Assembly (NCBI GenBank): GCA_965243285.1
Contig: OZ251537.1
Location: 2,057,019-2,121,018 of the forward strand
Direction of reading: 5' to 3'
Origin: Candidatus Poriferihabitaceae bacterium
GTDB lineage: Bacteria > Pseudomonadota > Gammaproteobacteria > Arenicellales > Poriferihabitantaceae
DNA: 64,000 bases
Part shown: positions 4,761 to 64,000 of the stretch, piece by piece
Layout: each line of letters opens with the position of its first letter
Numbering within the stretch: the stretch's first letter is position 1
Notes under the pieces: generated by a model
Told to the model about the DNA's origin: nothing
Database searches by the model: none
What the model saw: the letters and a program-made list of their open reading frames with translations, nothing else
Made by a program: the position numbers and the translations under genes

Positions 4761-7700
4761 TGAATTTCAAAATTCAGTTGCAAGATGACGGGGTTTTATT
4801 GCGGCTAAGTGAACAGACGAAAAAGTTGCTTACCACCCAAGAAAACCAGATTGGAGTTGAATGTTGGGATAAACTCAGCGCGTTTCATCACATCGAAGCA
4901 TTAGGAGTATTGCGCGCCGCCGAGGAAGAATCGAGCAAGTGTCGGGTGCTAGCGGATGGTTATGGCTACCATCTTTCATTTGAATTCGTATCCAGTTTGG
5001 AGGACGTGCATGCTCGTGCTTTAAACCTACCCGCCACATTTCCCTATCAAATTCAAATTAAAACAAGCAGCAATATCGGCTCACCTAATTTTGCCGTCCG
5101 TTGGCAAGCATTTGGCAAGGGGCGGCATCTTATAGTACAAAAAATCGGTTGTTTTTTAAATCTGGGGGAAATGCAATATCGATTACCGTCGGATATTTTA
5201 AAAATAATCACTTGTATAGATGATTACAATAATTTATTGCAGTCGGATTTTGAAATAAAAACAAAATTTGTCGCTGAACTCAAATCTATTTTGCCATTAT
5301 CCCCCAGTAAAGAAGTGGGATTTGAGGGCGAGTTGGAAACTATTTCATTGCAACATGCGTCCGCATTTTCACTTCAAATAACAGGCGATAAAAATTCTAT
5401 TAACTTTAATCCGATCTTATTTCACAAATCTGCATTGGAAAAAATTTTAGAAACCAGTGAATTATTGGATGAAAAAGAACAAATATTATCCCCAAATGAT
5501 GCCCGCAATTTTTCTGCAGCATTTAAAAATGCTAATCAAGTGAATGCTACTTATCTGTTAGGTTCATCAAACTATATCTACATTGATGCATCATTAAAAT
5601 CAGCATTAGATGTGGTTTTGACCGCATCAAAATTGTCCAAAGAAAAACGAATTGAATTCGCAAAAGCACCGCAAAAGTACATAAGAGCTAAGTTTGGCAA
5701 AAATTTAGATGATCTGTCCGATATCGATATAGAAATTGAATCGCAATTAATCGATCAATTATTCATCGAGACAAAACAATTTTCCGATAGAGTTATCGAG
5801 GTGGGTATTTGGAAAATGCCTGATTTACCGTGGTTGAAAACAGAGCCCAGTGAGTGGCTAGCCGATAATTATTCTTTCTGGATACAAGGAAAAATAGTAT
5901 GTTTTCCAGTCATGGACTTAGAAAAAGTAATAACAAAAGTAAAAAAAGCAAAGCAGAATAACGCGCACTTTTGTGAAATTGGCGGCGAGCAAGTGACCCC
6001 CAGTTGTGATTTAATTAATTCACTAACTGATCTGTCTCCAATAATGCCGAATGTTAAAGAACCAAAACCAATAACTTATACTTCATCTGATCGTATTGTG
6101 CTTTTGACAAAAGAAAACTTTGAAAATCTCGAATACTATAAAAATATCGAGTGTCGCGTTGAAAAATTAACATCCAACCCGCCGCGCTGCTTAAGTTCAA
6201 GCACCACTCTCAAAGTGCATCAACAATTGGGCGTTGAATGGTTGGTCGAAACTTACAACCGCGGTTTGCCCGGGGTATTGATGGCAGATGATATGGGGCT
6301 TGGGAAAACGCTTCAAGCGTTGGTATTTTTAGCCATTATGGTTGAGGCGGGAAAGACGGATTTCGGCACCCCCATATTGATAGTGGCGCCAGTTAGTTTA
6401 TTAAAAAATTGGCAAGAGGAGCATGAAAAGCATCTTGCCGCACACGGGCTTGGAAGGTTTGGGAAATTATATGGCAATGGTTTGAAGCAATTCAAAATGG
6501 GCAGTGGACGAGATATTGAAACCGGGGAAGCGGCCTTGGATGCGGAGAAAATCAAAAGGTGCGACTGGTTACTGACAACTTATGAAACCTTGCGTGATTA
6601 TCAGGTGTCATTTGGGCAAGTAGAGTTTTCGTGCGTTATTTTTGATGAATTGCAAAAAGCCAAAAACCCGAGAAGTTTAATTTCTAAAGGCGCCAAGGTT
6701 TTAAATGCTGAATTTTCGGTGGGGTTGACCGGTACACCGGTGGAAAATTCACTCGCTGATTTATGGACAATTATGGACATTCTAAGACCAGGACGCTTGG
6801 GGGATTTGAAAACATTTTTAGGCAAGTACCCAACTCCGAAAAATGAAAACGATCAAGAAAGCATTAATAAATTAACCCATCTTTCGAAGCAATTGCTTGA
6901 AAAATCCACCAATGCCCCGGCGCCCATTCTGCGCAGAATGAAAGCAGATTTAAAAAATAATGAGTTGCCCGAGAAAATCATCGTCCATTCAAGTGAAACA
7001 ACCGAGATGATGCCGGAGATACAGGAAAATGCTTATGCAGCGGTTTCCAATAGATTAAATGGTGGATTCATTAAAACGATTGATGCTTTAGCACAATTTA
7101 AAACCATTTCCCTTCATCCCGTATCATCAAATAACCCCGAACAAATTTCTGTGGATGAGTATATCAAAGCATCGGCTCGACTGAAAGTTACATTTGCCAT
7201 CCTCGATGAAATTCAGAAAAGAAATGAAAAAGTACTTTTATTTATAGAAAGAAGATCGCTTCAGCCTATTTTGGCATCGATAATTAAACAAAAATATAAT
7301 TTAAACACACAACCATTGATCATAAATGGCCTGATAAGCGGCGATGCCCGGCAGAAAAAAGTTAATGCTTTTCAAAAACGGCGTGACGGATTTGATGCCA
7401 TGATAATATCGCCAAAGGCAGGTGGCGTGGGGTTGACGCTCACTGCGGCGAACAATGTCATTCATGTCGAGCGCTGGTGGAATCCCGCCGTGGAAGACCA
7501 ATGCACAGACCGCGCCTATAGAATCGGGCAGACCAATCGGGTAAGGGTTTATACGCCTATTGCGAGGAGCGAATCTTTCGGCAACAAATCTTTTGATTGT
7601 GTTTTGGATGAGTTGCTCAATAAAAAAAGATCATTGGCAAGTGGTATATTCATGCCTACTGTCATTGAACATGGCGCTTTTGGTGGTGCGTTAAAATCTG

Positions 7701-14565: not shown

Positions 14566-15070
14566 GGCAGGTGGATTTTATACAAGATTTATATACCACC
14601 TAAAGGGGCTTACTTGATTGTTGTTTTGCGATTGATTTCGGCTTTAGTTTTTGCTCCACCCTGGTTTTCGAGGGGGAGCCAAAACTGGCGGCTTTTTCGC
14701 CAGTTTTGGTGGGGGGACTTTGGCTTTTCGCTTTTGCTTTTCGCTTTTGCTTTTCGCTTTTGCTTTTCGCTTTCGCTTTTGCTTTTCGCTTTTCGCTTTT
14801 CGCTGTTGCTTTTCGCTTTTCGCTGTGGCTTTTCGCTTTTGACTTCGCTTTTGATTTGCTGTTGGTTTTTACTTTCCCCTCATTTGGGCTAATGGGTTGA
14901 AGATTTAAAGCCAAAATCAAAAAGACCAACCTCAACAGACCCCCCACCAAATCAGGCGATAAGGCTGCCTGATTTGACTCCCCCCAGATGAAGCACGGGG
15001 GGGAGTGAAACGTTAAAAGCCAGAGCCAAAAGCCAAAGCCAAAGCCAAAGCCAAAAGCCAGCCCCCCACC
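14566..15070. repeat. Modular intergenic element, copy 1 (two double-hairpin cores, module C, flanking 6-7 nt microsatellites)
   Basis: Core at 14655-14716 (gctccaccc..gggggagccaaaactggcgg..cgccagttttggtgggggg). Module C at 14876-14910. Inverted core at 14939-15010. CTTTTCG/CTTTTGC repeats lie on the left and GCCAAAG repeats on the right. Confidence 0.85.
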
Positions 15071-15984: not shown

Positions 15985-16480
15985 ATATATTTGGCTTTTG
16001 ATTTGGCTTTTGTTTTACTCCCCCCCGCTTCATCTGGGGGGAGTCAAATCTGTCCGAGCCGATAGGCGCGGGCTGATTTGGTGGGGGGACTTTGGCTTTT
16101 GGCTTTAGACTTCGCTTTAGACTTCGCTTTAGACTTCGCTTTTGGTTTTACTTTGCCCCTCATTTCGGCTAATGGGTTGAAGATTTAAAGCAAAAAGCAA
16201 AAAGACCAACATCAACAGTCCCCCCACCAAATCAGGCGATAAAGCCGCCTGATTTGACTCCCCCTAGATGAAGCGGGGGGAGTAAAACGTTAAAAGCCAA
16301 AGCCAAAGCCAAAGCCAAAGCGAAGATCAAAGCGAAAATCAACAGTCCCCCCACCAAATCAGGCGATAGAGCCGCCTGATTTGACTCCCCCCAGATGAAA
16401 CGGGGGGGAGTAAAACGTTAAAAGCCAAAAGCCAAAGCCAAAAGCCAAAAGCCAAATCAAAAGCCAAAGCCAAAATCCCC
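15985..16480. repeat. Modular intergenic element, copy 2 (three cores plus module C)
   Basis: Cores at about 16016-16090 (+), 16218-16290 (-) and 16345-16415 (-). Module C at about 16163-16199. Microsatellite polarity flips at module C. Confidence 0.85.
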
Positions 16481-16492
16481 CTACCAATCCTC

Positions 16493-17440: not shown

Positions 17441-17520
17441 GGGTGATTTTGAGGCTGATTTTTGATGCTGATTTTGAGGTTGATTTTTGAGGTTGATTTT
17501 TGAGGATGATTTTTGAGGAT
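17441..17520. repeat. Tandem array of about 6 units, 13 bp period (GNTGATTTTTGAG)
   Basis: Read directly: gctgatttttgat / gctgattttgag / gttgatttttgag x2 / gatgatttttgag. It lies immediately upstream of the rluD start in the rluD-bamD divergent region. Confidence 0.8.
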
Positions 17521-17644
17521 GAGGGCGATGCACCGATAAGCGTCGATTAGGCGTGCTAAAATACGCTATTATTCGCCGCTGCCGTGCTGCCGCGCCATCG
17601 ATGGCGAGCCGCGGATATTTTCATTCTAAAACGGAATCTTATCC

Positions 17645-18591: not shown

Positions 18592-18624
18592 GAGGTTGTG
18601 GGTTTGAATTCCTCGTCGGGGAGT

Positions 18625-19012
18625 GGGGTGATTTTGGCTTTTGCTTTTGCTGTTGGCTTTTGCTGTTGGCTTTTGCTGTTGCTTTCGCTGTTGCTTTCGC
18701 TTTCGTTTTTGTTTTGGCTTTAGCCGAAATAAGATGAACAGGTAAAAATCAACAGCCAAAAGTCACATCAAAATCAACAGCACCCCCCACCAAAACTGGC
18801 GATGAAGCCGCCAGTTTTGGCTCCCCCCTAAAAAGATAGGGTGGAGCAAAGCCTTAACAGCAAAAGCAAAATCAAAAGCAACAGCAAAATCAAAAGCAAC
18901 AGCAAAATCAAAAGCAACAGCAAAATCAAAAGCCAAAGCAAAAAGCAAAATCAAAATCAAAATCAAAAGCCTAAAATCAAAAGCCTAAAATCAAAAGCCT
19001 AAAATCAACCCC
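18625..19012. repeat. Modular intergenic element, copy 3
   Basis: T-rich microsatellites at 18625-18720. Inverted core at about 18775-18850 (ccccccaccaaaactggcgatgaagccgccagttttggctcccccc). 18 bp and 14 bp A-rich tandem units continue to 19012. Confidence 0.8.
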
Positions 19013-19032
19013 CCAACACCCCGACTACGGGG

Positions 19033-22022: not shown

Positions 22023-22647
22023 TTATGTATCTAAATTCCCATTATTAGATTGCTATTTGGGAGGATTTTGCTTTGGTTTTTGTTGTTGATGTTAATGCTT
22101 TGCTCCCCCATGCTTTTCAGGGGGGAGCCAAAACTGGCGACTTCATCGCCAGTTTTGGTGGGGGGTGCGTTTGATTTTGATTTTGGTTTTGGTTTTTGAT
22201 TTTGGTTTTTGATTTTGGTTTTTGATTTTGGTTTTTGATTTTGCTTTTGATGTTGCTTTTGATTTGGCTTTTGTTTCGCTCCCCCCCCGCTTCATCTGGG
22301 GGGAGTCAAATCTGTCCGAGCCGTTAGGCACGGGCTGATTTGGTGGGGGGCTGTTGCTTTTCGCTTTTGCTTTTCGCTGTTGCTTTTCGCTGTTGCTTTT
22401 CGCTTTTGCTTTTCGCTTTTCGCTGTTGCTTTTCGCTGTTGCTTTGCCTTTGACTTGGCTTTTGACTTGGCTGTTGCTTTTTACCTTCCCCCTCATTTGG
22501 GCTAATGAGTTAAAGATTTAAAGGCCAAAGCCAAAGCCAAAATCAAAGCCAAAATCAAAAGCAAATCAAAAGAGAAAATCAAAAGCAAACCATCTCGGGA
22601 ATTTAGGTATATAAATCCCTAATCAAGAGGTTTAGGTATATAAATCC
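22023..22647. repeat. Modular intergenic element, copy 4 (two cores, module C, duplicated AT-rich end)
   Basis: Cores at about 22100-22165 and 22265-22345. Module C at about 22489-22524. Right end gggaatttaggtatataaatccc plus a second tttaggtatataaatccc. Confidence 0.85.
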
Positions 22648-22757
22648 CAAAATAAACCGTGGGTTGCGCAGTAGAATCTAGACCATGCGATGAAAAATAG
22701 ACCAGGCGATGAAAAACGCCCAACTCAGCGGATTTGGCTTACATTAATGCTACAAAA

Positions 22758-23553: not shown

Positions 23554-23653
23554 CGATATAAAACATCGACATAAAACATCGATATAAAACATCGACATAA
23601 AACATCGATATAAAACATCGATATAAAACATCGATATAAAACATCGACATAAA
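23554..23653. repeat. Tandem array of 7.7 units, exact 13 bp period (CGAYATAAAACAT)
   Basis: Read directly. Units alternate CGATAT and CGACAT. The array lies in the convergent intergenic space between moaE and the thioredoxin-like gene. Confidence 0.9.
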
Positions 23654-29354: not shown

Positions 29355-29384
29355 GAGACCCCGCTTAGTCGGGGTCTTTTTTTT
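29355..29384 (+). terminator. Rho-independent terminator after groEL
   Basis: gaccccg-cttagt-cggggtc followed by T8. The modular element starts directly after the T-run. Confidence 0.8.
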
Positions 29385-30106
29385 GGGATTTATATATCTA
29401 AATCTGCACGGTGGGGTTGGTTTTTGCTGTTGCTGTTGCTGTTGCTGTTGCTTTTGCTGTTGCTGTTGCTGTTGCTTTTGCTTTTGCTGTTGCTGTTAAT
29501 GCTTTGCTCCACCCTATCTTTTTAGGGGGGAGCCAAAACTGGCGGTTTCATCGCCAGTTTTGGTGGGGGGTGCGTTTGATTTTGATTTTGATTTTCGCTT
29601 TGATTTTCGCTTTGGCTTTCGCTTTGGCTTTGGCTTTGGCTTTGGCTTTCGCTTTCGCTTTGGCTTTTGGCTTTGGCTTTGGCTTTTGGCTTTTGGCTTT
29701 TGGCTTTTGGCTTTTGTTTTACTCCCCCCCGCTTCATCTGGGGGGAGTCAAATCTGTCCGAGCCGATAGGCTCGGGCTGATTTGGTGGGGGGCTTTTGTT
29801 TTTCGCTTTTGACTTGGCTTTTGACTTGGCTTTTGGTTTTTACTTTCCCCCTCATTTGGTCTAATGAGTTGAAGATTTAAAGGCAAAAGCAAAAAGACCA
29901 ACATCAACAGTCCCCCCACCAAATCAGGCGATAAAGCCGCCTGATTTGACTCCCCCCAGAAAAAGCTAAGGTGGAGTAAAACGTTAAAAGCCAAAGTCAA
30001 AAGCTAAAAGCAAAAGCAAAAGTCAAAAGCCAAACGCAGCCCCCTAAATCAGGCGCTGACCTCAAAAAAACGCCAATCGAACTGCAGATTTAGGACTATA
30101 AATCCC
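29385..30106. mobile_element. Modular intergenic element, copy 5: the most complete (archetype) copy, bounded by AT-rich terminal inverted repeats (MITE-like)
   Basis: Left end gggatttatatatctaaatctgcacggtgg. Right end ctgcagatttaggactataaatccc. Three cores (about 29500-29570 +, 29715-29790 +, 29910-29985 -). Module C at 29846-29881. A T-run is present on both flanks. Confidence 0.7.
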
Positions 30107-30547
30107 TTTTTTTGGGATTCAGATAGTTGTATTTTCTTCGATTGGGCGCGTCGTCACCACTGGGGCTGAGAAAACATCACTAAGTAGACCTCCCCCAAAT
30201 TTTGTTTGGCGGGGGGGTAGCAACCGCAGGCTGGGTCGGCTGTGGTAGTATGGGGATTGGAATCAAGGATAGATGCCGATATGCGCCGGATACTGCGCCG
30301 TTTTACTCACTGGGTCACAGGACGATGGCCGCCGGCCGCCGATGCTTGTGCCTTACGCCATGCCGATGCGCGCGCAGCGGTTGAATCAGGTGTCCACTCA
30401 TCGGCTACGGCTTGCTCGCACCAATCTGGCGTCGATTCGGCTGGTTTTTTGGCTGAATCTGGCGGCGACTCGGTTGATTCGGCCAAATCCAGCGTCGACT
30501 CGGTTGCCGGCGGCGTAAACCCCACGGCCAGGGATTCGCCAGGCGGC

Positions 30548-34524: not shown

Positions 34525-34837
34525 GGGAATTATATATCTAAATTTGCATGCTGGGTTTGATGTTGGGGTTTGATATTGCTTTGGCTGTTGGCTTTTAATT
34601 TTGATGTCGCTTTTGCTTTTGCTGTTGATATTGCTTTTGCTTTTGCTGTTGATATTGGTTTTTGCTTTTGCTGTTGATATTGGTTTTTGCTTTTGATTTT
34701 GATATTGCTTTTGGGCTTTTTCTTACTCCCCGCTTTGACTCCCCCTCCAAAAAGCAAAAGCGGGGGGGAGTGAAGAGCAAAATCAAAAGCCAAAAGCCAA
34801 AACCAAACCCACCGTGCAGATTTAGATATATAAATCC
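34525..34837. mobile_element. Modular intergenic element, copy 6 (short, with both terminal inverted repeats)
   Basis: Left end gggaattatatatctaaatttgcatgctgg. Right end ccaccgtgcagatttagatatataaatcc. A degenerate core lies at about 34725-34775. T-rich then A-rich microsatellites. Confidence 0.7.
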
Positions 34838-40861: not shown

Positions 40862-41719
40862 TTAACATGAATCGATGGTCGACCTCAAGTCGGTTGCGGG
40901 TTTCGATAAAATTTCCGCCTTAGGCGGGCGTTCTAAAACTGCCGGCGCGGCATTGATGTTATCTAACCGCCGCTGGGCGAGTTTAACCAATTCAGGCTGC
41001 AACTCAAACGCCAGAAAATCGCGCTGGTTTTGTTGGCAGACCAGCGGGCAAGTACCTGTGCCGGCGAATGGGTCGAGTACTAAATCGCCTTTCGATGAAC
41101 TGGCCAACACTAATCTTTCGATTAATTTTTCGGGTTTTTGGATGGTGTTTAAGGCCGAGCGGCACACCAATTCTTTGGATTTATAGGTGAGTTGTTTGAT
41201 GTCGCCCCACACATCGCCGGGGTTTTTGCCGCGCCCGTTGAATTTGGTTTTGGCGTATCTACCGCCGGTCACCGAGGGTACTTTTTCACAGCGCAAGCGA
41301 TGCGCCAACTCGACCAACTGCGGCACGCGAATGTCGTCTAAATGATAATGGCGCGGCGATTTGCCGTTGATGAAGTAGGCGATGATGTCGTAATTATTGG
41401 TGTAGTTTACGCGCCCTTGCGCCAAGCGGTTGGGTTGATACCATACTATTTTTGATTTTAGATTTAGGTGCGGGCGGTAATCGATGAAGTCTATGCAATT
41501 CGCCTTGCCAAACAGATAAAGCGCGCCGCCGGGTTTTAATTTGGCGGAAAATTTTTGGATTAAATCGAGATTGAAATCTTGAATCGACGAAATTTTATCC
41601 CAAGCATTGGCGGTGACGCCATACGGGCCATCGCAGATGATTAAATCCACGCTTGCCGCATCGACTTGTGCTATCAAATCAAAAAAATCGCCGCCATGTA
41701 TTCGGTTCTTTTCAAGCAT
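40862..41719 (-). CDS. Orphan beta-class (N6A/N4C) DNA methyltransferase
   Basis: Motif IV variant IICDGPYGV comes before motif I LVLDPFAGTGT, which is the beta-class order. The islet is AT-rich. The ATG at 41719 is preferred over the track TTG at 41728. Confidence 0.75.
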   Translation of the reverse strand: MLEKNRIHGGDFFDLIAQVDAASVDLIICDGPYGVTANAWDKISSIQDFNLDLIQKFSAKLKPGGALYLFGKANCIDFIDYRPHLNLKSKIVWYQPNRLAQGRVNYTNNYDIIAYFINGKSPRHYHLDDIRVPQLVELAHRLRCEKVPSVTGGRYAKTKFNGRGKNPGDVWGDIKQLTYKSKELVCRSALNTIQKPEKLIERLVLASSSKGDLVLDPFAGTGTCPLVCQQNQRDFLAFELQPELVKLAQRRLDNINAAPAVLERPPKAEILSKPATDLRSTIDSC

Positions 41720-41748
41720 GGTTTTCAAGCATGGTTTTCAAGCATGGG
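41713..41748. repeat. 13 bp x about 3 tandem repeat spanning the methyltransferase start codon (minus strand CCATGCTTGAAAA)
   Basis: Plus strand caagcatggtttt / caagcatggtttt / caagcatggg. Each unit carries an ATG on the minus strand. Only the last one is in frame with the gene. Confidence 0.85.
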
Positions 41749-43235: not shown

Positions 43236-44609
43236 ATGAAGCCCCCAAATCACAAGCGAATTTTGCTCGGCATCACCGGCGGTATCGCCGCTTATAAAAG
43301 CCCGAGCGTGGCGCGCCGCCTACGCGAACGCGGCTGCCAGGTGCGCGTGGTGATGACCGCCGCGGCCACCCAATTCATCACCCCGCTCACGCTGCAAGCG
43401 GTCAGCGGCAATGCGGTGCATCAACATTTGTTGGATGAAGGCGCCGAATCCGGTATGGGGCATATCGAGTTGGCGCGCTGGGCTGAGCAGTTAGTGGTGG
43501 CCCCCGCCAGCGCCGATTTTATCGCCCGCTTAGCGCATGGCCGCAGCAATGATTTGCTATGCGCCGTGGCCCTGGCAACCGCAGCAACCATCACCCTCGC
43601 CCCGGCCATGAACCGCATGATGTGGCAACACCCGGCCACGCAGCGCAATGTGGCCGAGTTGGCGGCGCGCGGGGTGCGCATTATCGGCCCCGGCGCCGGC
43701 TCGCAGGCGTGCGGCGAAAGCGGCGCCGGGCGTATGAGCGAGCCTGAGGAGATTGCGGCACAAGTGGTCGGCGCCGGGCGGCCGCGTTCGTTGGCCGGCG
43801 TGAGCGTATTGATGACCGCCGGCCCCACCTGGGAGGCGTTGGACCCGGTGCGCGGGCTGAGCAACCACTCTTCCGGCAAAATGGGCTATGCCATGGCGCA
43901 AGCGGCGGCCGATGTCGGGGCTGAAGTTACGCTGGTGAGCGGACCGGTGGATGCGGCGGTGAGCGGCCGGGTTTGTAGCCGGGGTTATGACCAGTCTGGC
44001 GGGGGCGGTGGTCGGGTTTATGGTCAGCCTGGCGGGGGGGATGATGGGATTGATGGCGGCGTTAATGGTCGCCCTGGCACCGGCGGCATCGACCTCATCG
44101 CGGTGCGCTCGGCGCAAGAGATGTTGGATGCGGTGCTGGCTCGGGCTGCGACGGCGGATGTGTTCATCGGCGTGGCGGCGGTGGCGGATTACCGCCCGGC
44201 GGCAGTGAGCGCCCAAAAAATCAAGAAAAAAGCGCCGCGCATGCGCATCGACCTCATCCAAAACCCGGATATTCTGGCCACCGTGGCGGCGCTGAAAAAG
44301 GCCCCGTTCACGGTGGGCTTCGCCGCCGAAACCGAGAATGTATTAGCCCACGCCCGCGAAAAAGGCCGCCGCAAAGGCGTCGATATCATGCTCGCCAACC
44401 ATGTCGCCGAGGTGTTCGGCCGCGATGAAAATTCGGTGACGGTGATCGACTGCCGACGGGGTGGCGTTGCTGGTGGCGCTGGCGACGGCGGCGAAATCAC
44501 CGGTGAAATCACCCTGCCGCGCACCGATAAATATCGCTTAAGCCGGCAAATCATCGAACACATCGCCCCGCTGGTGCTGGCGCGACGAAAATGCGCTCAT
44601 CCCACTTAA
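43236..44609 (+). CDS. coaBC: Bifunctional phosphopantothenoylcysteine decarboxylase / phosphopantothenate-cysteine ligase
   Basis: ILLGITGGIAAYK, PAMN..MW and SSGKMG motifs. It carries a Gly-rich insert (GGGGGRVYGQPGGGDDGIDGG...) in the CoaB half. Confidence 0.9.
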   Translation: MKPPNHKRILLGITGGIAAYKSPSVARRLRERGCQVRVVMTAAATQFITPLTLQAVSGNAVHQHLLDEGAESGMGHIELARWAEQLVVAPASADFIARLAHGRSNDLLCAVALATAATITLAPAMNRMMWQHPATQRNVAELAARGVRIIGPGAGSQACGESGAGRMSEPEEIAAQVVGAGRPRSLAGVSVLMTAGPTWEALDPVRGLSNHSSGKMGYAMAQAAADVGAEVTLVSGPVDAAVSGRVCSRGYDQSGGGGGRVYGQPGGGDDGIDGGVNGRPGTGGIDLIAVRSAQEMLDAVLARAATADVFIGVAAVADYRPAAVSAQKIKKKAPRMRIDLIQNPDILATVAALKKAPFTVGFAAETENVLAHAREKGRRKGVDIMLANHVAEVFGRDENSVTVIDCRRGGVAGGAGDGGEITGEITLPRTDKYRLSRQIIEHIAPLVLARRKCAHPT

Positions 44610-44727
44610 TTTTGCCAGCCAATTTTGCCAGCCAATTTTGCCAGCCCATTTCGCCAGCCCATTTCGCCAGCCCATTTCGCCAGCCCATTTTGCCAGCCCA
44701 TTTCGCCAGCCCATTTCATCGCCAGCC
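44608..44727. repeat. Tandem array of about 9 units, 13 bp period (AATTTTGCCAGCC / CATTTCGCCAGCC)
   Basis: Read directly. It begins inside the coaBC stop codon and ends 44 nt upstream of the dut ATG. Confidence 0.9.
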
Positions 44728-46335: not shown

Positions 46336-46610
46336 TAGATATAAATTTTCTTGTTTGATTGTTGCTTGGTTTTTGATTTTGGTTTTGCTGTTGCTTTTGA
46401 TGCTTCTTCTTTCACGCCACTTAGCTTTTGCTTTTTGGAGGGGGAGTCAAAACTGGCGGCTTTATCGCCTGATTTGGTGGGGGGTTGATGTTGGTCTTTT
46501 TGCTTTTGCTTTTAAATCTTCAACTCATTAGCCCAAATGAGGGGCTATGTAAAAATCAAAAGCCAAATAAAAATCAAACCCAGCCGGGCGGATTTAGATA
46601 TATTAATCCC
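46336..46610. repeat. Modular intergenic element, copy 7 (inverted orientation)
   Basis: Core at about 46415-46485, with hybrid stem arms (caaaactggcgg...cgcctgatttgg). Module C reversed at about 46505-46545. Right end cgggcggatttagatatattaatccc. Confidence 0.8.
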
Positions 46611-46640: not shown

Positions 46641-47420
46641 TCAGCGCTTGACTATCGTCATGACCGCAAAAATGGCGGCGGCGATTACCACGATGGAAGG
46701 GCCGGCCGGGGTATCGAGCCACATCGACAGCGCCAGGCCGCCGCCCATGGAGGCTATGCCGAATACGGCGGCGAGCAGCGCCATGCCTTCGGGCGAGCGG
46801 GCTACGTAGCGGGCTGCAGCCGGCGGGATGATGAGCAATGAGACGATGAGCAAAGCGCCGACCACTTGCATGGCGAGGGCCACTACCACGCTCAGCAAAA
46901 TGAAAAAAATGGCGCGGATTTGCGGCTCGCGGACGCCGCCGACGATGGCTAATTCGCGATGCGCGATGAGTGCTAATAGCGGTCGCCAGATGGTCGCCAG
47001 AATGAGCAGCACGCCGCCGCCGCCGAGATAAATCCACCACACATCGGCGGCGCGCAACGCCAGGATGTCGCCGAATAAATAACCGATGAGGTCGACGCGC
47101 ACGCCCGGCATCAGCGCCAACAACACCAGTCCCAACGCCAGCGTGCCGTGGGCGAGGATGCCGAGCGCCGCATCGCTGCTTAAATCCCGCCGCCGCTGCA
47201 TCAGCGCCAACAGCGCCGATACCGCCAGGCACACCAGCAGAATCGCCAGTTGTAAATTCAGCGCGAAAAATAGCCCCAAGGCGATGCCGAGCAGCGCCGC
47301 ATGCGCTAACGCGGCGCCGAAATACGCCATGCGCTGCCACACCACCGCGCACCCCAACGGGGCGCAGAGGATGGCTACGCCGACGCCGCCGAGCAGGGCG
47401 CGCCATAAAAAATCATCCAT
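46641..47420 (-). CDS. znuB: Zinc ABC transporter permease
   Basis: MDDFLWRALLGG...VVWQRMAYFG..LAHAALLG parallels ZnuB. The start at 47420 overlaps the preceding stop (ATGGATGA). Confidence 0.85.
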   Translation of the reverse strand: MDDFLWRALLGGVGVAILCAPLGCAVVWQRMAYFGAALAHAALLGIALGLFFALNLQLAILLVCLAVSALLALMQRRRDLSSDAALGILAHGTLALGLVLLALMPGVRVDLIGYLFGDILALRAADVWWIYLGGGGVLLILATIWRPLLALIAHRELAIVGGVREPQIRAIFFILLSVVVALAMQVVGALLIVSLLIIPPAAARYVARSPEGMALLAAVFGIASMGGGLALSMWLDTPAGPSIVVIAAAIFAVMTIVKR

Positions 47421-47684
47421 GCGCATCGGCCGCCGGCAGCGGCTGGATGTCGCCGTGGGCGCCATGTACATGATCGTGGTGATGTTGATAAGGCGCTAAT
47501 CCAGCGCCCGCAGCCGCCACCGGGGCGCAGAGGATGGCTACGCCGACGCCGCCGAGCAGGGCGCGCCATAAAAAATCATCCATGCGCATCGGCCGCCGGC
47601 AGCGGCTGGATGTCGCCGTGGGCGCCATGTACATGATCGTGGTGATGTTGATAGGGCGCTAATCCAGCACCCGCAGCCGCCGCC
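47359..47684. repeat. 163 bp tandem duplication (2 copies, 3 mismatches) of the znuC-3'/znuB-5' junction
   Basis: 47359-47521 and 47522-47684 were aligned base by base. Differences are A/G, G/A and A/G. The junctions share the GGGGCGC microhomology. Confidence 0.9.
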
Positions 47685-48370
47685 GGGGCGCCGAATAAGG
47701 CGCGAAATTGCGGGTGCTGGCGTACCTCGGCCGGTTTGCCGCTGCAACATAAGTGGCGGTTTACGCACAGCACGCGGTCGGTGGCCGCCATCACCATGTG
47801 CAGGTCGTGGGAGACCAGCAGCACGCCGCAGCGCCGCTGCTCGCGCAAGGTTTGGATGAGGCGGTGCAGGCTCGCTTGGCCGCTGACATCCAGCCCGGCG
47901 GCGGGTTCGTCCAACACCAGCAAATCCGGCGCCGGCAACAACGCCCCGGCCAACAACACGCGGCGCATTTCGCCGCCGGATAAATCGTGCATGGCGGCAT
48001 CGCCGAGTTGGCTCGCGCCCACTTCGGCGAGGGCCTCATCGAGGCGCGCCGCCGGGTGATTTTTATGGGCGCGCAAGAAACGCCGCACCGACAGCGGCAA
48101 GGTGCGCTCGAATTCGATGCGCTGCGGCACATAACCGAGCGCCAGCCCGGTGCGTCTGCGCACCATGCCGCTATCGGGCTTCAATAATTGCAGCGCGAGG
48201 TTGACCACGGTGCTTTTGCCGGCGCCATTGGGGCCGATGAGGGTGACGATTTCGGCGCCATCGAGGGTGAAACTTAAATCCTGCAGAATGATTTGCCCGT
48301 TGCGGCTGAAATTTACCTGCTCGAAGCGCAGTAGCGGGGCGGCGCGGTCGCGGCGGGCGGGCGATGGCAT
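47576..48370 (-). CDS. znuC: Zinc ABC transporter ATP-binding protein with a His-rich C-terminal tail
   Basis: Walker A GPNGAGKST, signature LSGGEMRR, Walker B LLVLDEP, and tail YQHHHDHVHGAHGD. Confidence 0.9.
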   Translation of the reverse strand: MPSPARRDRAAPLLRFEQVNFSRNGQIILQDLSFTLDGAEIVTLIGPNGAGKSTVVNLALQLLKPDSGMVRRRTGLALGYVPQRIEFERTLPLSVRRFLRAHKNHPAARLDEALAEVGASQLGDAAMHDLSGGEMRRVLLAGALLPAPDLLVLDEPAAGLDVSGQASLHRLIQTLREQRRCGVLLVSHDLHMVMAATDRVLCVNRHLCCSGKPAEVRQHPQFRALFGAPAAAAGAGLAPYQHHHDHVHGAHGDIQPLPAADAHG

Positions 48371-52172: not shown

Positions 52173-52314
52173 ATCAGCGCCGCCGAATCGCCGCCGACGG
52201 TTGATAGCCATCAAAGTGGCGGCTCATCGACACCATGCGCGCGGTTTATTACCATTAATATATCGCTATGGTGTGCTAGGGATTAACCCAGCGGCGGTAG
52301 GTTGATTATTAATA

Positions 52315-52464
52315 GGGGATTTATAGTCCTAAATATGCAGTTCGATTGGCGTTTTTTTGAGGTCAGCGACTGATTTAGGGGGCTGCGGTTGTTTTTTGCT
52401 TTTGCTTTGGTTTTTGATTTTGCTTTTGGCTTTTGCTGTTAACGTTTTACTCCCCCCCGCTTCA
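52315..52464. repeat. Modular element, copy 8a: left arm, truncated inside the core by the methyltransferase-HNH cassette
   Basis: The 72 nt end module ggggatttatagtcctaaatatgcagttcgattggcgtttttttgaggtcagcgactgatttagggggctgcg is the inverse of 30035-30106 with 2 mismatches. The core breaks off after actcccccccgcttca. Confidence 0.8.
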
Positions 52465-52543
52465 GAGGGTGTGCGAAAAGCCACCTTGTTTGATATTTTA
52501 CTCTGAAATCATTTATCAAAAAAGGTACAATAGGCGCTTACAA

Positions 52544-52590
52544 CATTCCATCGATGCATTCCATTGATGCATTTTATTGATGCATTCAAT
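52544..52590. repeat. 13 bp x about 3.5 tandem repeat (CATTCCATYGATG) containing ATGCAT/ATCGAT palindromes
   Basis: cattccatcgatg / cattccattgatg / cattttattgatg / cattcaatc. It lies in the 300 bp untranslated stretch 3' of the methyltransferase-HNH gene. Confidence 0.8.
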
Positions 52591-52767
52591 CACTTGCCAT
52601 CAAAATATTATCATGCCTTCCACAAAATCATACACCGCGCATCTATCTACGCAGTGCAGTATGTTCAATAGCATGCCGCAAGTTGCCAAGAAGGCGATGA
52701 CTCTTGCTGCCAACGGTAGAAAATTTATAACCGGCGAGCCTAATAAATTGTACTATGGATGGCTACA

Positions 52768-54156
52768 TTACTCATCGCTTTTCCCCCACGCCGCGGCGTG
52801 TTCATTAATAATATCTTGGCGGCGCTGTATCTGTTCTTCAGTTAACTTCCCCCATAAAAAATGCATATCCTTATCGCCCTTCTTGCTATTACAGGCACGG
52901 CATAGCAACTGTAAATTCTCCATAACATCGCGCCCGCCTTTGGCTCTGGCTAATTTGTGGTCGACTTCTAAATCATCCTCCATCTTTTGCTCTAAACACC
53001 CTTTGCAAATAGGCTGCTTACCCTTACGGTAAAACTCTTGCAATAAATTCTGTTTGGCATCCTTTATAGACACCTTTTCATACCCCAATTCATCCGCCCG
53101 TTTTGGCAAGGGTTTTGGTTTTTTTACCTTTGCTTTGGCGGGTTTATTAGTATCAAAGCGATAGTTATCGAATGGGCTTGCCTCTATTCGGTCGTGCAAT
53201 ATCTCAATCGCCTTCTCATTTTGGTCGATGCCAATCCATTGCCTATCTAACGCCGCCGCCGCCATGCAAGTAGTCGCGCATCCGCAAAACGGGTCTAAAA
53301 CTAAATCCCCCTCATTGCTACTAGCCTTAATTATGCGATTTAACAGGGCGAGCGGTTTTTGGGTTTGATAGGGGGTTTTTTCTCGATGATTGGTTAAAGC
53401 CGCAATATCAACCCACCACGATTCGGGAATTTTACCGCCGCCGAATTTAGTATCCACTTGCGTATGGTTTCGGCGATTTTTGATGTCCACGGAAGCGGCG
53501 ATACAACTACTTTCGCCCTCCACACGCCCCCGCCTGGCAAGAGTTTCTGAGCTATACGGAACGCGCACGGCATTGCGGTGGAAAAGTGTTTTTTTAGACT
53601 TAGCGTAAAAGAAAATAGTGTCGTGTTTTCGCGGGAATTGCATACGGACATTACCGGGGCCGGTATAACACCAAACAATTTCATTCCTAAAATTGTTCTT
53701 GCCAAACACACAATCAAGCACCATTCTCAAATAAAAATTGGCACTATGGTCACAATGTAAATACAGTGAACCCGTAGATTTTAGCAACCGATGCATCTGC
53801 ACAATCCGCGATGCCATAAAGGCCAAATAATTATGCATTGACCGACTATGCATATCCTCTGCCAACACAATCATCTGCCACATATCCGGGTATGCAAACT
53901 TCAGATTCAGCGCATGGGCATAATCCACATCCTTTTTGCTCCATGTATCATCAAACGAATGGGCTGGCGTTTTACCCTTGCGCAAAATATCACTCTTAAA
54001 CGGCGGATCAGTGTAGATTAAATCCACCATGTTTGATTCCATACCCATCATAATCGGCAGATTATCACCGATATAAAGGGTTTTCTCATACTCCGCCGGC
54101 CCACTTATGCCACCAACTCCGCGTAGGTTAGCCTTTTGACTTGTTTTATCAATCAT
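52768..54156 (-). CDS. Beta-class DNA methyltransferase fused to a C-terminal HNH nuclease domain
   Basis: Motif IV LIYTDPPF comes before motif I LVLDPFCGCATT. The C-terminus CKGC..LEVDHKLARAKGGRDVMENLQLLCRACNSKKG is an HNH (CxxC...H..N...CxxC) motif. It is AT-rich. The ATG at 54156 is preferred; the track GTG is at 54174. Confidence 0.8.
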   Translation of the reverse strand: MIDKTSQKANLRGVGGISGPAEYEKTLYIGDNLPIMMGMESNMVDLIYTDPPFKSDILRKGKTPAHSFDDTWSKKDVDYAHALNLKFAYPDMWQMIVLAEDMHSRSMHNYLAFMASRIVQMHRLLKSTGSLYLHCDHSANFYLRMVLDCVFGKNNFRNEIVWCYTGPGNVRMQFPRKHDTIFFYAKSKKTLFHRNAVRVPYSSETLARRGRVEGESSCIAASVDIKNRRNHTQVDTKFGGGKIPESWWVDIAALTNHREKTPYQTQKPLALLNRIIKASSNEGDLVLDPFCGCATTCMAAAALDRQWIGIDQNEKAIEILHDRIEASPFDNYRFDTNKPAKAKVKKPKPLPKRADELGYEKVSIKDAKQNLLQEFYRKGKQPICKGCLEQKMEDDLEVDHKLARAKGGRDVMENLQLLCRACNSKKGDKDMHFLWGKLTEEQIQRRQDIINEHAAAWGKSDE

Positions 54157-54221
54157 TCCGCTATTATTACACACCCTAAAACCTCATGCAAGCAATGGGT
54201 CAACAACCATATAATTCCCAA

Positions 54222-54570
54222 ACAAAAGCCAAAGCCAAAGCCAAAAGCCAAAAGCCAAAGCCAAAGCCAAAGCCAAAAGCCAAAAGCCAAAGCCAAAAGC
54301 CAAAAGCCAAAGCCAAAAGCCAAAAGCCAAAGCCAAAAGCCAAAAGCCAAAGCCAAAAGCCAAAAGCCAAAGCCAAAATCAAAAGCGACAATCAAAAGCG
54401 ACAATCAAAAGCCGAGTCAAAATCAAAATCAAAAAGCCCCCCACCAAAACTGGTGATGAAGCCGCCAGTTTTGACTCCCCCTCATGGTGAAGCGGGGGGA
54501 GTGAAGATTAAAAGCCAAAAGCCAAAAGCCAAAATCAAAACCACCGTGCAAATTTAGATATATAAATCCC
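54222..54570. repeat. Modular element, copy 8b: right arm with terminal inverted repeat
   Basis: About 200 bp of GCCAAAA/GCCAAAG repeats. Inverted core at about 54435-54510. Right end ccaccgtgcaaatttagatatataaatccc. Confidence 0.85.
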
Positions 54571-54612
54571 ATTAATAGGTTTGCCCTCCAAACGCTGGCT
54601 GCGATGGCGGGA

Positions 54613-55212
54613 TTAATCCGCCGGCGGTTCGTTCCATGGGCAATTCAGGCGCGCCAGGCGCAGTTTTCCGCCGGCATCGAAGCGAAAAATATGCGGCAAG
54701 GTCCAGTCGATTTTTTGGTTGAAATCGGCCGCCATATCCCAGTCGCAGGCGGCGCTCAACACGCTACGAATCACCCCCTTGTGAGTGACCGCTAACGCCG
54801 CCGGGTGCGCCGCCGCGGTCGCGCTAAGCCATGGCAACAACCGCCGCCGCACCATGCGCGCGCTTTCCCCGCCCGGCGGGGTGAAATCCAGCCCGCGATT
54901 TGGCATCAACACCAGCGCATGAATGCGTGCCTCGAGAGTGCTGCGATGCAGGCCTTCAAAATCCCCCCAATTCGCTTCGATGAGGGCGGCGCAGCTAAGC
55001 GCTGGCGCATCGGGGTTGAGCAGGGCGGCGGTGTGCGCGGCGCGGCGCAATGGGCTGGCGTGCCAGCGGGCGCGCAAAAAGCCATCGGCGGGGTGGGTTT
55101 GGCGCAATGTTTCGGCGCCGGCGGCGCTCAATTCGGTGTCGGTGCGTCCCTGAATCAAACCGCGCTGATTCCACTCGGTGACGCCGTGGCGCAACAACGC
55201 TATCCAAGCCAT
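54613..55212 (-). CDS. Histidine phosphatase family protein (phosphoglycerate mutase / CobC-like)
   Basis: N-terminal LLRHGVTEWN (RHG catalytic motif). 199 aa. Confidence 0.75.
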   Translation of the reverse strand: MAWIALLRHGVTEWNQRGLIQGRTDTELSAAGAETLRQTHPADGFLRARWHASPLRRAAHTAALLNPDAPALSCAALIEANWGDFEGLHRSTLEARIHALVLMPNRGLDFTPPGGESARMVRRRLLPWLSATAAAHPAALAVTHKGVIRSVLSAACDWDMAADFNQKIDWTLPHIFRFDAGGKLRLARLNCPWNEPPAD

Positions 55213-62983: not shown

Positions 62984-64000
62984 GATTATACAGGGGGGGA
63001 ACAGGTAGGGCTAAGACAACGCCGGCAAGCCGGACGGTCTTATCCGTTTCGATTATACAGGGGGGGAACAGGTAGGGCTAAGACAACGGAAATCACCGAG
63101 GGCCTCGAGCGGCTAGCGATTATACAGGGGGGGAACAGGTAGGGCTAAGACAACATGTCTTGGTTTATTGTGTACGGATAGCCGGATTATACAGGGGGGG
63201 AACAGGTAGGGCTAAGACAACTGGCTAAACAAGCGACTAAACATCTGGACTGATTATACAGGGGGGGAACAGGTAGGGCTAAGACAACGGCGGCGGCGAG
63301 GCGCGCCAAGCCCCCCATGATTATACAGGGGGGGAACAGGTAGGGCTAAGACAACACCATGCCCTCACGGGTGCGCTCGCTTGGCGATTATACAGGGGGG
63401 GAACAGGTAGGGCTAAGACAACAAACTAACCTCGCACACATCGACCAACTCAGATTATACAGGGGGGGAACAGGTAGGGCTAAGACAACTGACCGGCGCG
63501 ACCGCATTTAGCATTTAGATTATACAGGGGGGGAACAGGTAGGGCTAAGACAACGCATGGATGATGATAAAGTCAACGCCGCTAGATTATACAGGGGGGG
63601 AACAGGTAGGGCTAAGACAACACGCCTTTGAATTGGCCCGCCGAGTTAGAGATTATACAGGGGGGGAACAGGTAGGGCTAAGACAACGGTATCTGGCTGG
63701 ATATTATTATCCAGTCGGGATTATACAGGGGGGGAACAGGTAGGGCTAAGACAACGCAGGCATGCGATGTGTTCAATAATGGTCGGATTATACAGGGGGG
63801 GAACAGGTAGGGCTAAGACAACGATCGACCATCATGGCCGCCGAAAGCGAGGGATTATACAGGGGGGGAACAGGTAGGGCTAAGACAACAACCTATCGCC
63901 GGCGATGAAGGAACTAGAGGGATTATACAGGGGGGGAACAGGTAGGGCTAAGACAACACAAGGGCGAGTTGGTATTCCACCAGCGGCGATTATACAGGGG
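62984..64000 (-). CRISPR. Type II-C CRISPR array: 15 complete repeats and 1 truncated at the window edge, 15 spacers
   Basis: The 37 nt repeat GATTATACAGGGGGGGAACAGGTAGGGCTAAGACAAC is identical in all copies. Starts: 62984, 63051, 63118, 63185, 63252, 63319, 63386, 63453, 63518, 63585, 63651, 63719, 63786, 63853, 63921, 63988. Spacers are 28-31 nt and all different. The minus strand is given as crRNA sense because the reverse complement starts GTTGT and ends TGTATAATC. Confidence 0.97.

Follow-up and report, generated by a model that had tools for sequence, protein, structure and literature searches.

Organization of the composite locus

The window analysed here, a 64,000-nucleotide (64-kb) stretch of contig OZ251537.1 from a Candidatus Poriferihabitaceae bacterium whose genome appears to be of the sponge-symbiont type, carries a gene for a DNA methyltransferase fused to an HNH nuclease, and this gene lies within one copy of a modular, repeat-rich element family. 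The composite is 2255 bp long (52316-54570), has terminal inverted repeats at both ends, and is bounded on the outside by a perfect 8-bp target duplication, ATTAATAG. The left copy (52308-52315) and the right copy (54571-54578, read from the sequence) have the same letters and stand directly outside the terminal repeats, an eight-of-eight match that has a chance of about 1.5e-5 at fixed positions. Three parts make up the composite: a left arm (52316-52464, forward strand), a unique low-GC insert or cassette (52465-54221, reverse strand) that comprises a 3' flank, the methyltransferase-HNH gene and a 5' leader, and a right arm (54222-54570). A preliminary description made from the sequence alone had already placed both arms, the insert, its gene and the 3' region, and had the left arm breaking off within a double-hairpin core; all of these were found again where it put them.

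The left arm opens with the terminal repeat GGGATTTATAGTCCTAAATATGCA at 52316, where host intergenic DNA gives way. This repeat, of the GTCC type (52316-52339, forward strand), is 83% complementary to the right terminal repeat, of the ATATCT type (54547-54570, reverse strand), and differs at one position from 30083-30106, an end of another element copy. The initial 72 nt of the left arm, which includes an end module, show 97% identity to 30106-30035. Next comes a short TTTTGC-type microsatellite, which leads into the start of a forward hairpin core, AACGTTTTACTCCCCCCCGCTTCA, but the core is truncated. Its match to three other cores (16012-16032, 16421-16396 and 29716-29736) ends exactly at 52464, after ACTCCCCCCCGCTTCA, whereas intact copies go on with TCTGGGGGGAGTCAAATC... 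past this point, and the junction falls in the loop of the first hairpin of the core. The right arm consists of a microsatellite array of AAAGCC/AAAAGCC units of 6/7 nt (54222-54434, also given as 54223-54434), a complete double-hairpin core in inverted orientation (54437-54502, reverse strand), 85-96% identical to the cores at 14716, 16220, 18783, 22165, 29591 and 46484, and the terminal repeat. The left arm aligns to positions 0-137, and the right arm to positions 390-721, of the reverse complement of the 721-bp full-length element at 29386-30106. Because the arms are collinear with this one element and the flanking 8 nt are identical, they represent the two ends of a single transposed unit and not two independent elements, so that the nesting of the gene in one element, as first described, stands.

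The composite occupies the junction between two convergent housekeeping genes (HisPhos and HD206). In a relative, a Candidatus Poriferihabitaceae metagenome-assembled genome (MAG; locus L003), four genes stand in the order seen here, with protein identities of 62-70%, with HisPhos and HD206 no more than 72 bp apart, a GC-rich spacer between them, and neither an element nor a methyltransferase gene. The empty junction in L003 therefore identifies the whole 2.26 kb as an insertion relative to the ancestral arrangement; this relative is distant (62% protein identity), and the empty site is not alignable base by base. The preliminary description would have been contradicted by relatives that carry the gene at this position without flanking arms and with native GC content, and L003 has no gene there at all. 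For the neighbouring GloB protein, the best relatives among the matches listed in a scan of genome contigs are at most 70% identical. A longer target duplication was also considered, pairing GGGATTAAYCC...GGCGGT at 52279-52303 with 54610-54634, which match at 20 of 25 positions, and was set aside as not significant. The first of these segments is the end of the histidine-phosphatase gene, its final codons and stop (GGGATTAATCCGCCGGCGGT), and its look-alike across the element is probably due to chance, since the alignment score is only about 2.3 standard deviations above shuffled sequences.

The insert and its encoded protein

The insert measures 1757 bp, has a GC content of 0.439 against 0.57-0.65 in neighbouring genes, and has no second copy within the window. 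One credible and intact open reading frame (ORF) is present (52768-54174, reverse strand), encoding 468 amino acids from a GTG at 54174, or 462 from the ATG at 54156 that is used in the identical database entry (P0001, 100% identity); the insert contains no separate restriction gene, and none for specificity. The gene has a GC content of 0.448 and a third-position GC content (GC3) of 0.478, where neighbour genes have 0.57-0.65 and 0.67-0.75, and by composition it is foreign, as its AT-rich appearance had suggested.

Profile searches assign residues 50-326 (53197-54027, reverse strand) to the beta-class N6_N4 DNA methyltransferases (Pfam PF01555, E 8.7e-47; 160.3 bits against a cutoff of 26.7, over profile positions 1-219 of 221), with DPPF preceding DPFCGCATT. 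Residues 390-435 (52870-53007, reverse strand) form an HNH nuclease domain with CxxC, DH, N and CxxCN motifs (PF01844, E 7e-12; 45.7 bits against a cutoff of 21.4). The reading of this single protein as a beta-class methyltransferase with an HNH motif, for which a profile search had been proposed as the check, is thereby upheld. NCBIfam matches add to this identification, and PADLOC returns only Type II/III methyltransferase models. The motif order, IV (DPPF) before I (DPFCGCATT) with a variable recognition region between them, is the beta-class order, and the presence of DPPF rather than SPPY makes N6-adenine the probable modified base. In an alignment with 29 relatives (30 sequences) the catalytic residues of both domains are invariant, including the DPPF and DPFCGCATT motifs of the methyltransferase and C384, C387, D399, H400, N414, C419, C422 and N423 of the HNH domain. 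In an AlphaFold model (mean pLDDT 75.6) the methyltransferase core is joined through a disordered Lys-rich linker (338-357) to an HNH domain with a strand-strand-helix fold (396-426), and a long helix forms the C-terminus. With Foldseek the methyltransferase part matched M.BceJIV best (E 1.4e-16), followed by CcrM, RsrI and MboIIA. By sequence, the HNH domain is closest to those of Cas9, IscB and group II intron maturases, which are also its nearest neighbours among solved structures and in which each active site cuts one strand. Similarity to the profile of Endonuclease_7, a cruciform resolvase, is weak and sub-threshold (E 0.034 here and 3e-4 in homologue locus L096), and domain profile searches of the protein found no DDE, serine, tyrosine or HUH recombinase domain. 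No solved structure of, or paper on, a methyltransferase-HNH fusion was found in the literature searched, which does not prove that none exists.

The non-coding parts of the insert showed no blastn or tblastx similarity to the homologue loci fetched. The 3' flank, 303 nt without translation, has no ORF of note and no Rfam match at E <=1. As first described, it contains 13-bp repeats, here delimited by a repeat search as a period-13 tandem array at 52544-52591 (unit CATTCCATCGATG, 3.7 copies). Arrays with a 13-nt period and unrelated units also occur in ordinary intergenic DNA of the window (17447-17522, 23554-23653, 41709-41747 and 44609-44717), so the array in the flank may reflect a host process; the microsatellite units of the elements, of 6 and 7 nt, also sum to 13. 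A terminator-like hairpin with a T-run lies 110 nt 3' of the stop codon (52631-52658, reverse strand), identified by a consensus scan in which the number of sites is not above that in shuffled sequences. Other expression signals are likewise at the consensus level, namely a GAGG 9-12 nt ahead of the GTG start and a promoter-like TTGGCT-16-AATTAT that straddles the junction of insert and microsatellite. Finally, an 8-bp inverted repeat, AGGGTGTG at 52466-52473 and CACACCCT at 54170-54177, is present where it had been described but does not bound the cassette as then thought. The right copy stands 44 bp in from the edge of the insert, partly over the GTG start codon, and such a pair arises in 2.8% of random placements; the repeat was rejected as marking the cassette ends and is probably fortuitous.

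The modular element family

The element family to which the arms belong is the most unusual feature of the window. About eight copies or fragments are found in the 64 kb (14640-15070, 15990-16490, 18600-19020, 22050-22650, 29386-30106, 34526-34837, 46438-46609 and the composite at 52316-54570), of which 29386-30106 and 34526-34837 are full copies. The ends are of the GGGATTTATA type, with terminal repeats of about 24 nt that give 8 matches in the window where 0.03 would be expected, and the interior is built of microsatellites and double-hairpin cores that vary in number and orientation. Short copies, of 312-721 bp, have no coding capacity. With terminal inverted repeats, a target duplication and several short non-coding copies, the family has the characteristics of miniature inverted-repeat transposable elements (MITEs). 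The methyltransferase-HNH protein is the only protein encoded within any element copy of the window, and the seven other copies are not occupied by the cassette.

Target preference is suggested by the element at 29386-30106, which is flanked by a duplicated T-run (29386/30106), pointing to AT-rich or T-run target sites. This element sits in the T-run (29379-29386) of a terminator-like hairpin, GACCCCGCTTAGTCGGGGTC followed by T8 (29358-29386, resuming at 30107-30114). Outside the genome the family was not detected: none of 178 loci fetched from other genomes for comparison, related sponge-symbiont MAGs included, contained traces of the element. JGI metagenome contigs were also scanned for the terminal repeat GGATTTATANNNCTAAATNTGCA, and the seven matches were discarded as single chance occurrences in AT-rich DNA, without cores or microsatellites.

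Degraded paralogues in the same chromosome

The preliminary description had called for a search for other genomic copies of the cassette, and although no second one lies in the window, three degraded paralogues are recorded on the same 2,793,270-bp contig outside it. Two were found with a C-terminal query of 135 residues and one more with an N-terminal query of 194 residues. P0124 (90 residues) is 86% identical to the linker and ends at the start of the HNH domain; P0123 (161 residues) is 52% identical over linker and HNH; and P0273 (231 residues) matches the N-terminus of the methyltransferase at 77% identity as far as the point that corresponds to window position 53611. The tail of P0273, GFIYLNLQLDWRFLRSATELGGLRL...FGFWLLAFG, is the translated terminal repeat, end module and microsatellite of a modular element (compare 52317-52391 and 30105-30031). 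P0273 thus records the end-first insertion of a modular element into a paralogue of the methyltransferase-HNH gene. It follows that the elements are genuinely mobile and that methyltransferase-HNH genes are both acquired and destroyed in this genome.

The protein family in other genomes

The fusion is not rare, and its novelty had been overstated, since both domains are present in 116 of the 120 best database relatives. These come from MAGs of Gammaproteobacteria, Bacteroidia, Fibrobacteria, Planctomycetes and Ignavibacteria, and the closest full-length relative is only 58% identical. At the eight homologue loci inspected the gene stands alone, at a differing place in each, with housekeeping neighbours or inside a defence island. 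The flanking pairs include lpdA with a protease gene, trpD with an EamA gene, and a DAHP synthase gene with rpmF; elsewhere amidohydrolase paralogues surround it, and once it sits within a Type I restriction-modification (RM) island. These eight loci have no partner nuclease, no transposase or recombinase and no element arms, and they share neither flanking sequence nor a conserved insertion site. The gene lies 5-12 points of GC content under its flanks in all five homologue loci tested. Searches of 50,697 phage records and 72,556 plasmids gave no full-length match, and of the 80 loci kept from IMG/VR six are full length, with an integrase 3 kb away from one of these. Broken relatives are common, including one cut by an IS256-type transposase gene and one that diverges in mid-domain.

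Different parts of the protein have different closest relatives. The N-terminal catalytic part is 63-73% identical to that of one clade, whose recognition region is only 17-40% identical, and with a second clade the pattern is reversed, the N-terminal part being 45-51% and the recognition region 55-67% identical. Target-recognition regions have thus been swapped between lineages. Such shuffling is typical of restriction-linked methyltransferases and not of conserved regulatory orphans.

In a 4.39-Mb genome (L084), the homologue P0024 and a 36-residue upstream ORF lie between 25-nt inverted repeats (5858-5882 and 7266-7290; GGGGATTACATACAATCCTACACAG) that are 92% complementary, with no target duplication visible and no further copy in 13 kb. 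This is the only convincing inverted repeat among the homologue loci, which show no shared flanking signature. In L176 (453-2124 and 7504-7791) the homologue is found among repeated Amidohydro_2 genes with small Uma2 and GIY-YIG genes interspersed, pointing to local accumulation of small nuclease-type genes. In L001 (5826-5900), GCATTGCAAA-like motifs spaced by 13, 26 and 14 nt lie upstream of the methyltransferase-HNH gene.

Origin and function of the methyltransferase-HNH cassette

The account favoured for this locus, with moderate confidence, is that a horizontally acquired, RM-like module of a single gene entered a resident MITE-like element and partly replaced it. The cassette would have entered the element copy secondarily, breaking the forward hairpin core in its loop and replacing about 250 bp of the interior. 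Of the two possibilities first raised for the nesting, a cassette inserted into a pre-existing element or a cargo-bearing copy, the former is most likely on the sequence evidence, because the core is broken in mid-hairpin, about 250 bp of the interior are absent, the gene family is armless elsewhere and the paralogues are divergent. Movement of the element is not the work of this protein, although with its ends intact the composite could be mobilised in trans.

As to function, the first suggestion of a compact RM or homing module fares differently in its two halves. That the protein works as a one-gene RM-type module is judged an evenly balanced proposition. The methyltransferase domain and its recognition region would bind a short site and methylate resident DNA, while the tethered HNH domain would nick unmethylated sites or cut them as a dimer. 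One target-recognition region would direct both activities, in a logic like that of Type IIC enzymes, and the module would gain defence and/or addiction properties. A function of this type would account for the missing partner gene, for the diversification of recognition regions, and for the solitary, patchy and fast-turnover distribution of the family. For the homing half, the eight loci at eight unrelated positions, with no shared flanks, do not have the pattern of a free-standing HNH homing endonuclease.

Several points weigh against secondary entry by an RM-like module. A single HNH active site only nicks, and double-strand restriction would need dimerisation. The right junction of the insert is in low-complexity DNA and is not placeable to the base. 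No strain-level empty and filled alleles were obtained, and the flanking proteins are database singletons. The "missing" 250 bp presumes a former likeness to 29386-30106, though the elements are modular and variable. The target duplication, finally, fits either order of events, since transposition of a composite in trans would leave an identical scar, and it is for this reason that part of the probability, clearly a minority, is left with transposition of the cassette as cargo.

In that alternative, a less likely but substantial one, the element would have held the cassette before the composite transposed into ATTAATAG, carried in trans by whichever transposase mobilises the short copies. The locus itself would then, with the same reserve, be a non-autonomous transposon with an RM-type gene. 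Both terminal repeats are intact, the 8-bp duplication around the 2255-bp unit is perfect, and the chromosome has another related copy of the gene; moreover, there are published RM units that lie between imperfect inverted repeats, show 8-bp duplications and lack a transposase (PMC2853133). Yet the cassette is in no other element of the window, the family moves without these arms in other genomes, and the broken forward core resembles damage to a pre-existing copy. The divergence of the copies points in the same direction: the other gene copies are 77-86% identical in protein while element ends are 89-97% identical in DNA, so that the gene copies have diverged far more than the ends and nothing indicates that the gene spread recently as element cargo.

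A homing-type selfish gene is doubtful. By this explanation the HNH domain cuts sites that lack the gene, perhaps in hairpin or cruciform repeats, and repair copies the gene in; the methyltransferase domain, on a similarly slender expectation, would shield the carrier genome or supply DNA targeting. The gene is indeed solitary, without a recombinase and at a separate locus in every genome, its left junction lies within a hairpin loop, the L084 gene lies between the 25-nt inverted repeats, the weak Endonuclease_7 similarity is found here and in L096, and the HNH subtype is that of group II introns and IscB. Against this, neither an insertion site nor a flanking motif is conserved among the loci, the window has seven further element copies without the cassette, the paralogues are degraded and not spreading, and the Endonuclease_7 match is below threshold. 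Nor is the other half of the hairpin present beside the insert, so this is not a clean insertion.

It is equally doubtful that the protein is an orphan methyltransferase with an accessory nuclease that serves the cell, for example in epigenetic regulation, in nicking for strand-discriminating repair or in control of DNA uptake, and not restriction or selfish spread. Beta-class relatives do include the regulatory enzymes CcrM and M.BceJIV, there is no separate restriction gene, and the repeated motifs beside the gene here and in L001 could be regulatory sites. Regulatory orphans, however, are vertically inherited and conserved in specificity, unlike this family, which is patchy, low in GC relative to its hosts, at separate loci, mosaic in its recognition region and often pseudogenised, and whose gene is absent from the orthologous locus of L003.

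An improbable extension of these ideas would make the fusions a widespread class of one-gene mobile RM/homing elements, in which an Endo VII-like HNH domain cuts hairpins or cruciforms in unmethylated repeats. The gene would then, by the same long shot, lodge preferentially in palindromic repeat elements and could ride them around the genome. Fitting this are the left junction in a hairpin loop here and the position of the L084 gene between the halves of a 25-nt palindrome. Very unlikely, finally, is the earlier suggestion that the composite is the autonomous relative of the elements, its protein mobilising them and the short copies being its non-autonomous derivatives: although the protein is the sole one encoded in any element copy of the window, it has no recombinase domain of the DDE, serine, tyrosine or HUH kinds and none of a transposase or integrase, its relatives in eight other genomes are armless and the 178 fetched loci contain no modular element, its own paralogue (P0273) was broken by an element, and the cassette interrupts an element core instead of sitting between intact modules.

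Comparison with known systems

The closest precedent is provided by the transposon-like RM units of Furuta, Abe & Kobayashi (2010), in which the genes lie between imperfect inverted repeats, 8-bp duplications are present, a transposase is lacking and a relative has the site empty, and whose authors likewise could not tell whether the unit moves in trans (PMC2853133). Shared with the present locus are an RM-type gene enclosed by imperfect terminal repeats, the lack of an internal mobility gene, the 8-bp target duplication and the empty site in a related genome (L003). In contrast, the repeats of those units are unique in their genome, whereas here they belong to an abundant, multi-copy, modular MITE-like family; here also the gene is a single methyltransferase-HNH fusion, and the element interior is visibly broken by the insert. 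With MITEs in general the family shares terminal inverted repeats of about 24 nt, the 8-bp target duplication, many short non-coding copies (312-721 bp), and insertion into a gene (P0273) and into a terminator T-run. It differs in its interior of microsatellites and variable double-hairpin cores and in having a copy with a 1.76-kb gene-bearing insert.

As a protein, the fusion invites comparison with the Type IIC/IIG/IIL MmeI family, in whose members a PD-(D/E)XK nuclease at the N-terminus is combined with a gamma-class methyltransferase and, at the C-terminus, a recognition domain (PMC2582602, PMC2731913). Both combine nuclease and methyltransferase in one polypeptide with a recognition region that varies between relatives; in the MmeI family one such region serves the two activities, as it would here, and the present protein would be a minimal one-gene system. 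Here, however, an N-terminal beta-class methyltransferase is followed by a C-terminal HNH domain, the recognition region is internal, and there is no sequence relationship beyond the methyltransferase fold. The architecture is not that of the MmeI family, and the protein is therefore a possible functional analogue and not a member. With M.BceJIV, CcrM, M.RsrI, M.MboIIA and Type III Mod proteins it shares the order of motif IV before motif I and the DPPF and FxGxG motifs; with the first four the fold match has E values of 1e-14 to 1e-16 and a TM-score of at most 0.80 normalised to the target. These beta-class and Mod enzymes differ in lacking a nuclease domain, and sequence identity is only 16-26%. 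The HNH domain is of the same subfamily (CxxC...DH...N...CxxC) as those of Cas9, IscB and group II maturases, but the RuvC, reverse-transcriptase and guide-RNA parts of those systems are absent here, and targeting would come from the methyltransferase domain.

Other repeats in the window

Two further repeat features were observed. A CRISPR array at 62984-63957, with 15 identical 37-nt repeats (GATTATACAGGGGGGGAACAGGTAGGGCTAAGACAAC) and spacers of 28-31 nt, runs toward the end of the window; its spacers match neither the cassette, nor the elements, nor the rest of the window. At 47354-47691 a GC-rich, apparently coding 163-bp unit is tandemly duplicated (2.1 copies, 97% identical).

Implications

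In summary, the arrangement of a methyltransferase-HNH gene within a MITE-like element is real, while the gene family, and the way in which such genes are carried, are already known in kind. The present analysis adds the target duplication, the relative's empty site, the context of the family and the paralogue broken by an element. Current views are not overturned by these findings; known patterns are extended. If the protein is a working one-chain RM enzyme, its architecture of a beta-class methyltransferase plus HNH in about 420-470 residues is a compact one, and its naturally exchanged recognition regions are a possible source of new nicking or restriction specificities, so that the family is a reasonable target for enzymology. 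The locus also shows a MITE-like element, its ends intact, that holds a defence-type gene, and such carriage is one way in which genes of this kind could move without a recombinase of their own. The converse event in the same chromosome, an element destroying a paralogue, speaks of conflict between two selfish elements and of rapid gain and loss, and the relationship of gene-in-element and element-in-gene makes this genome a good case study.

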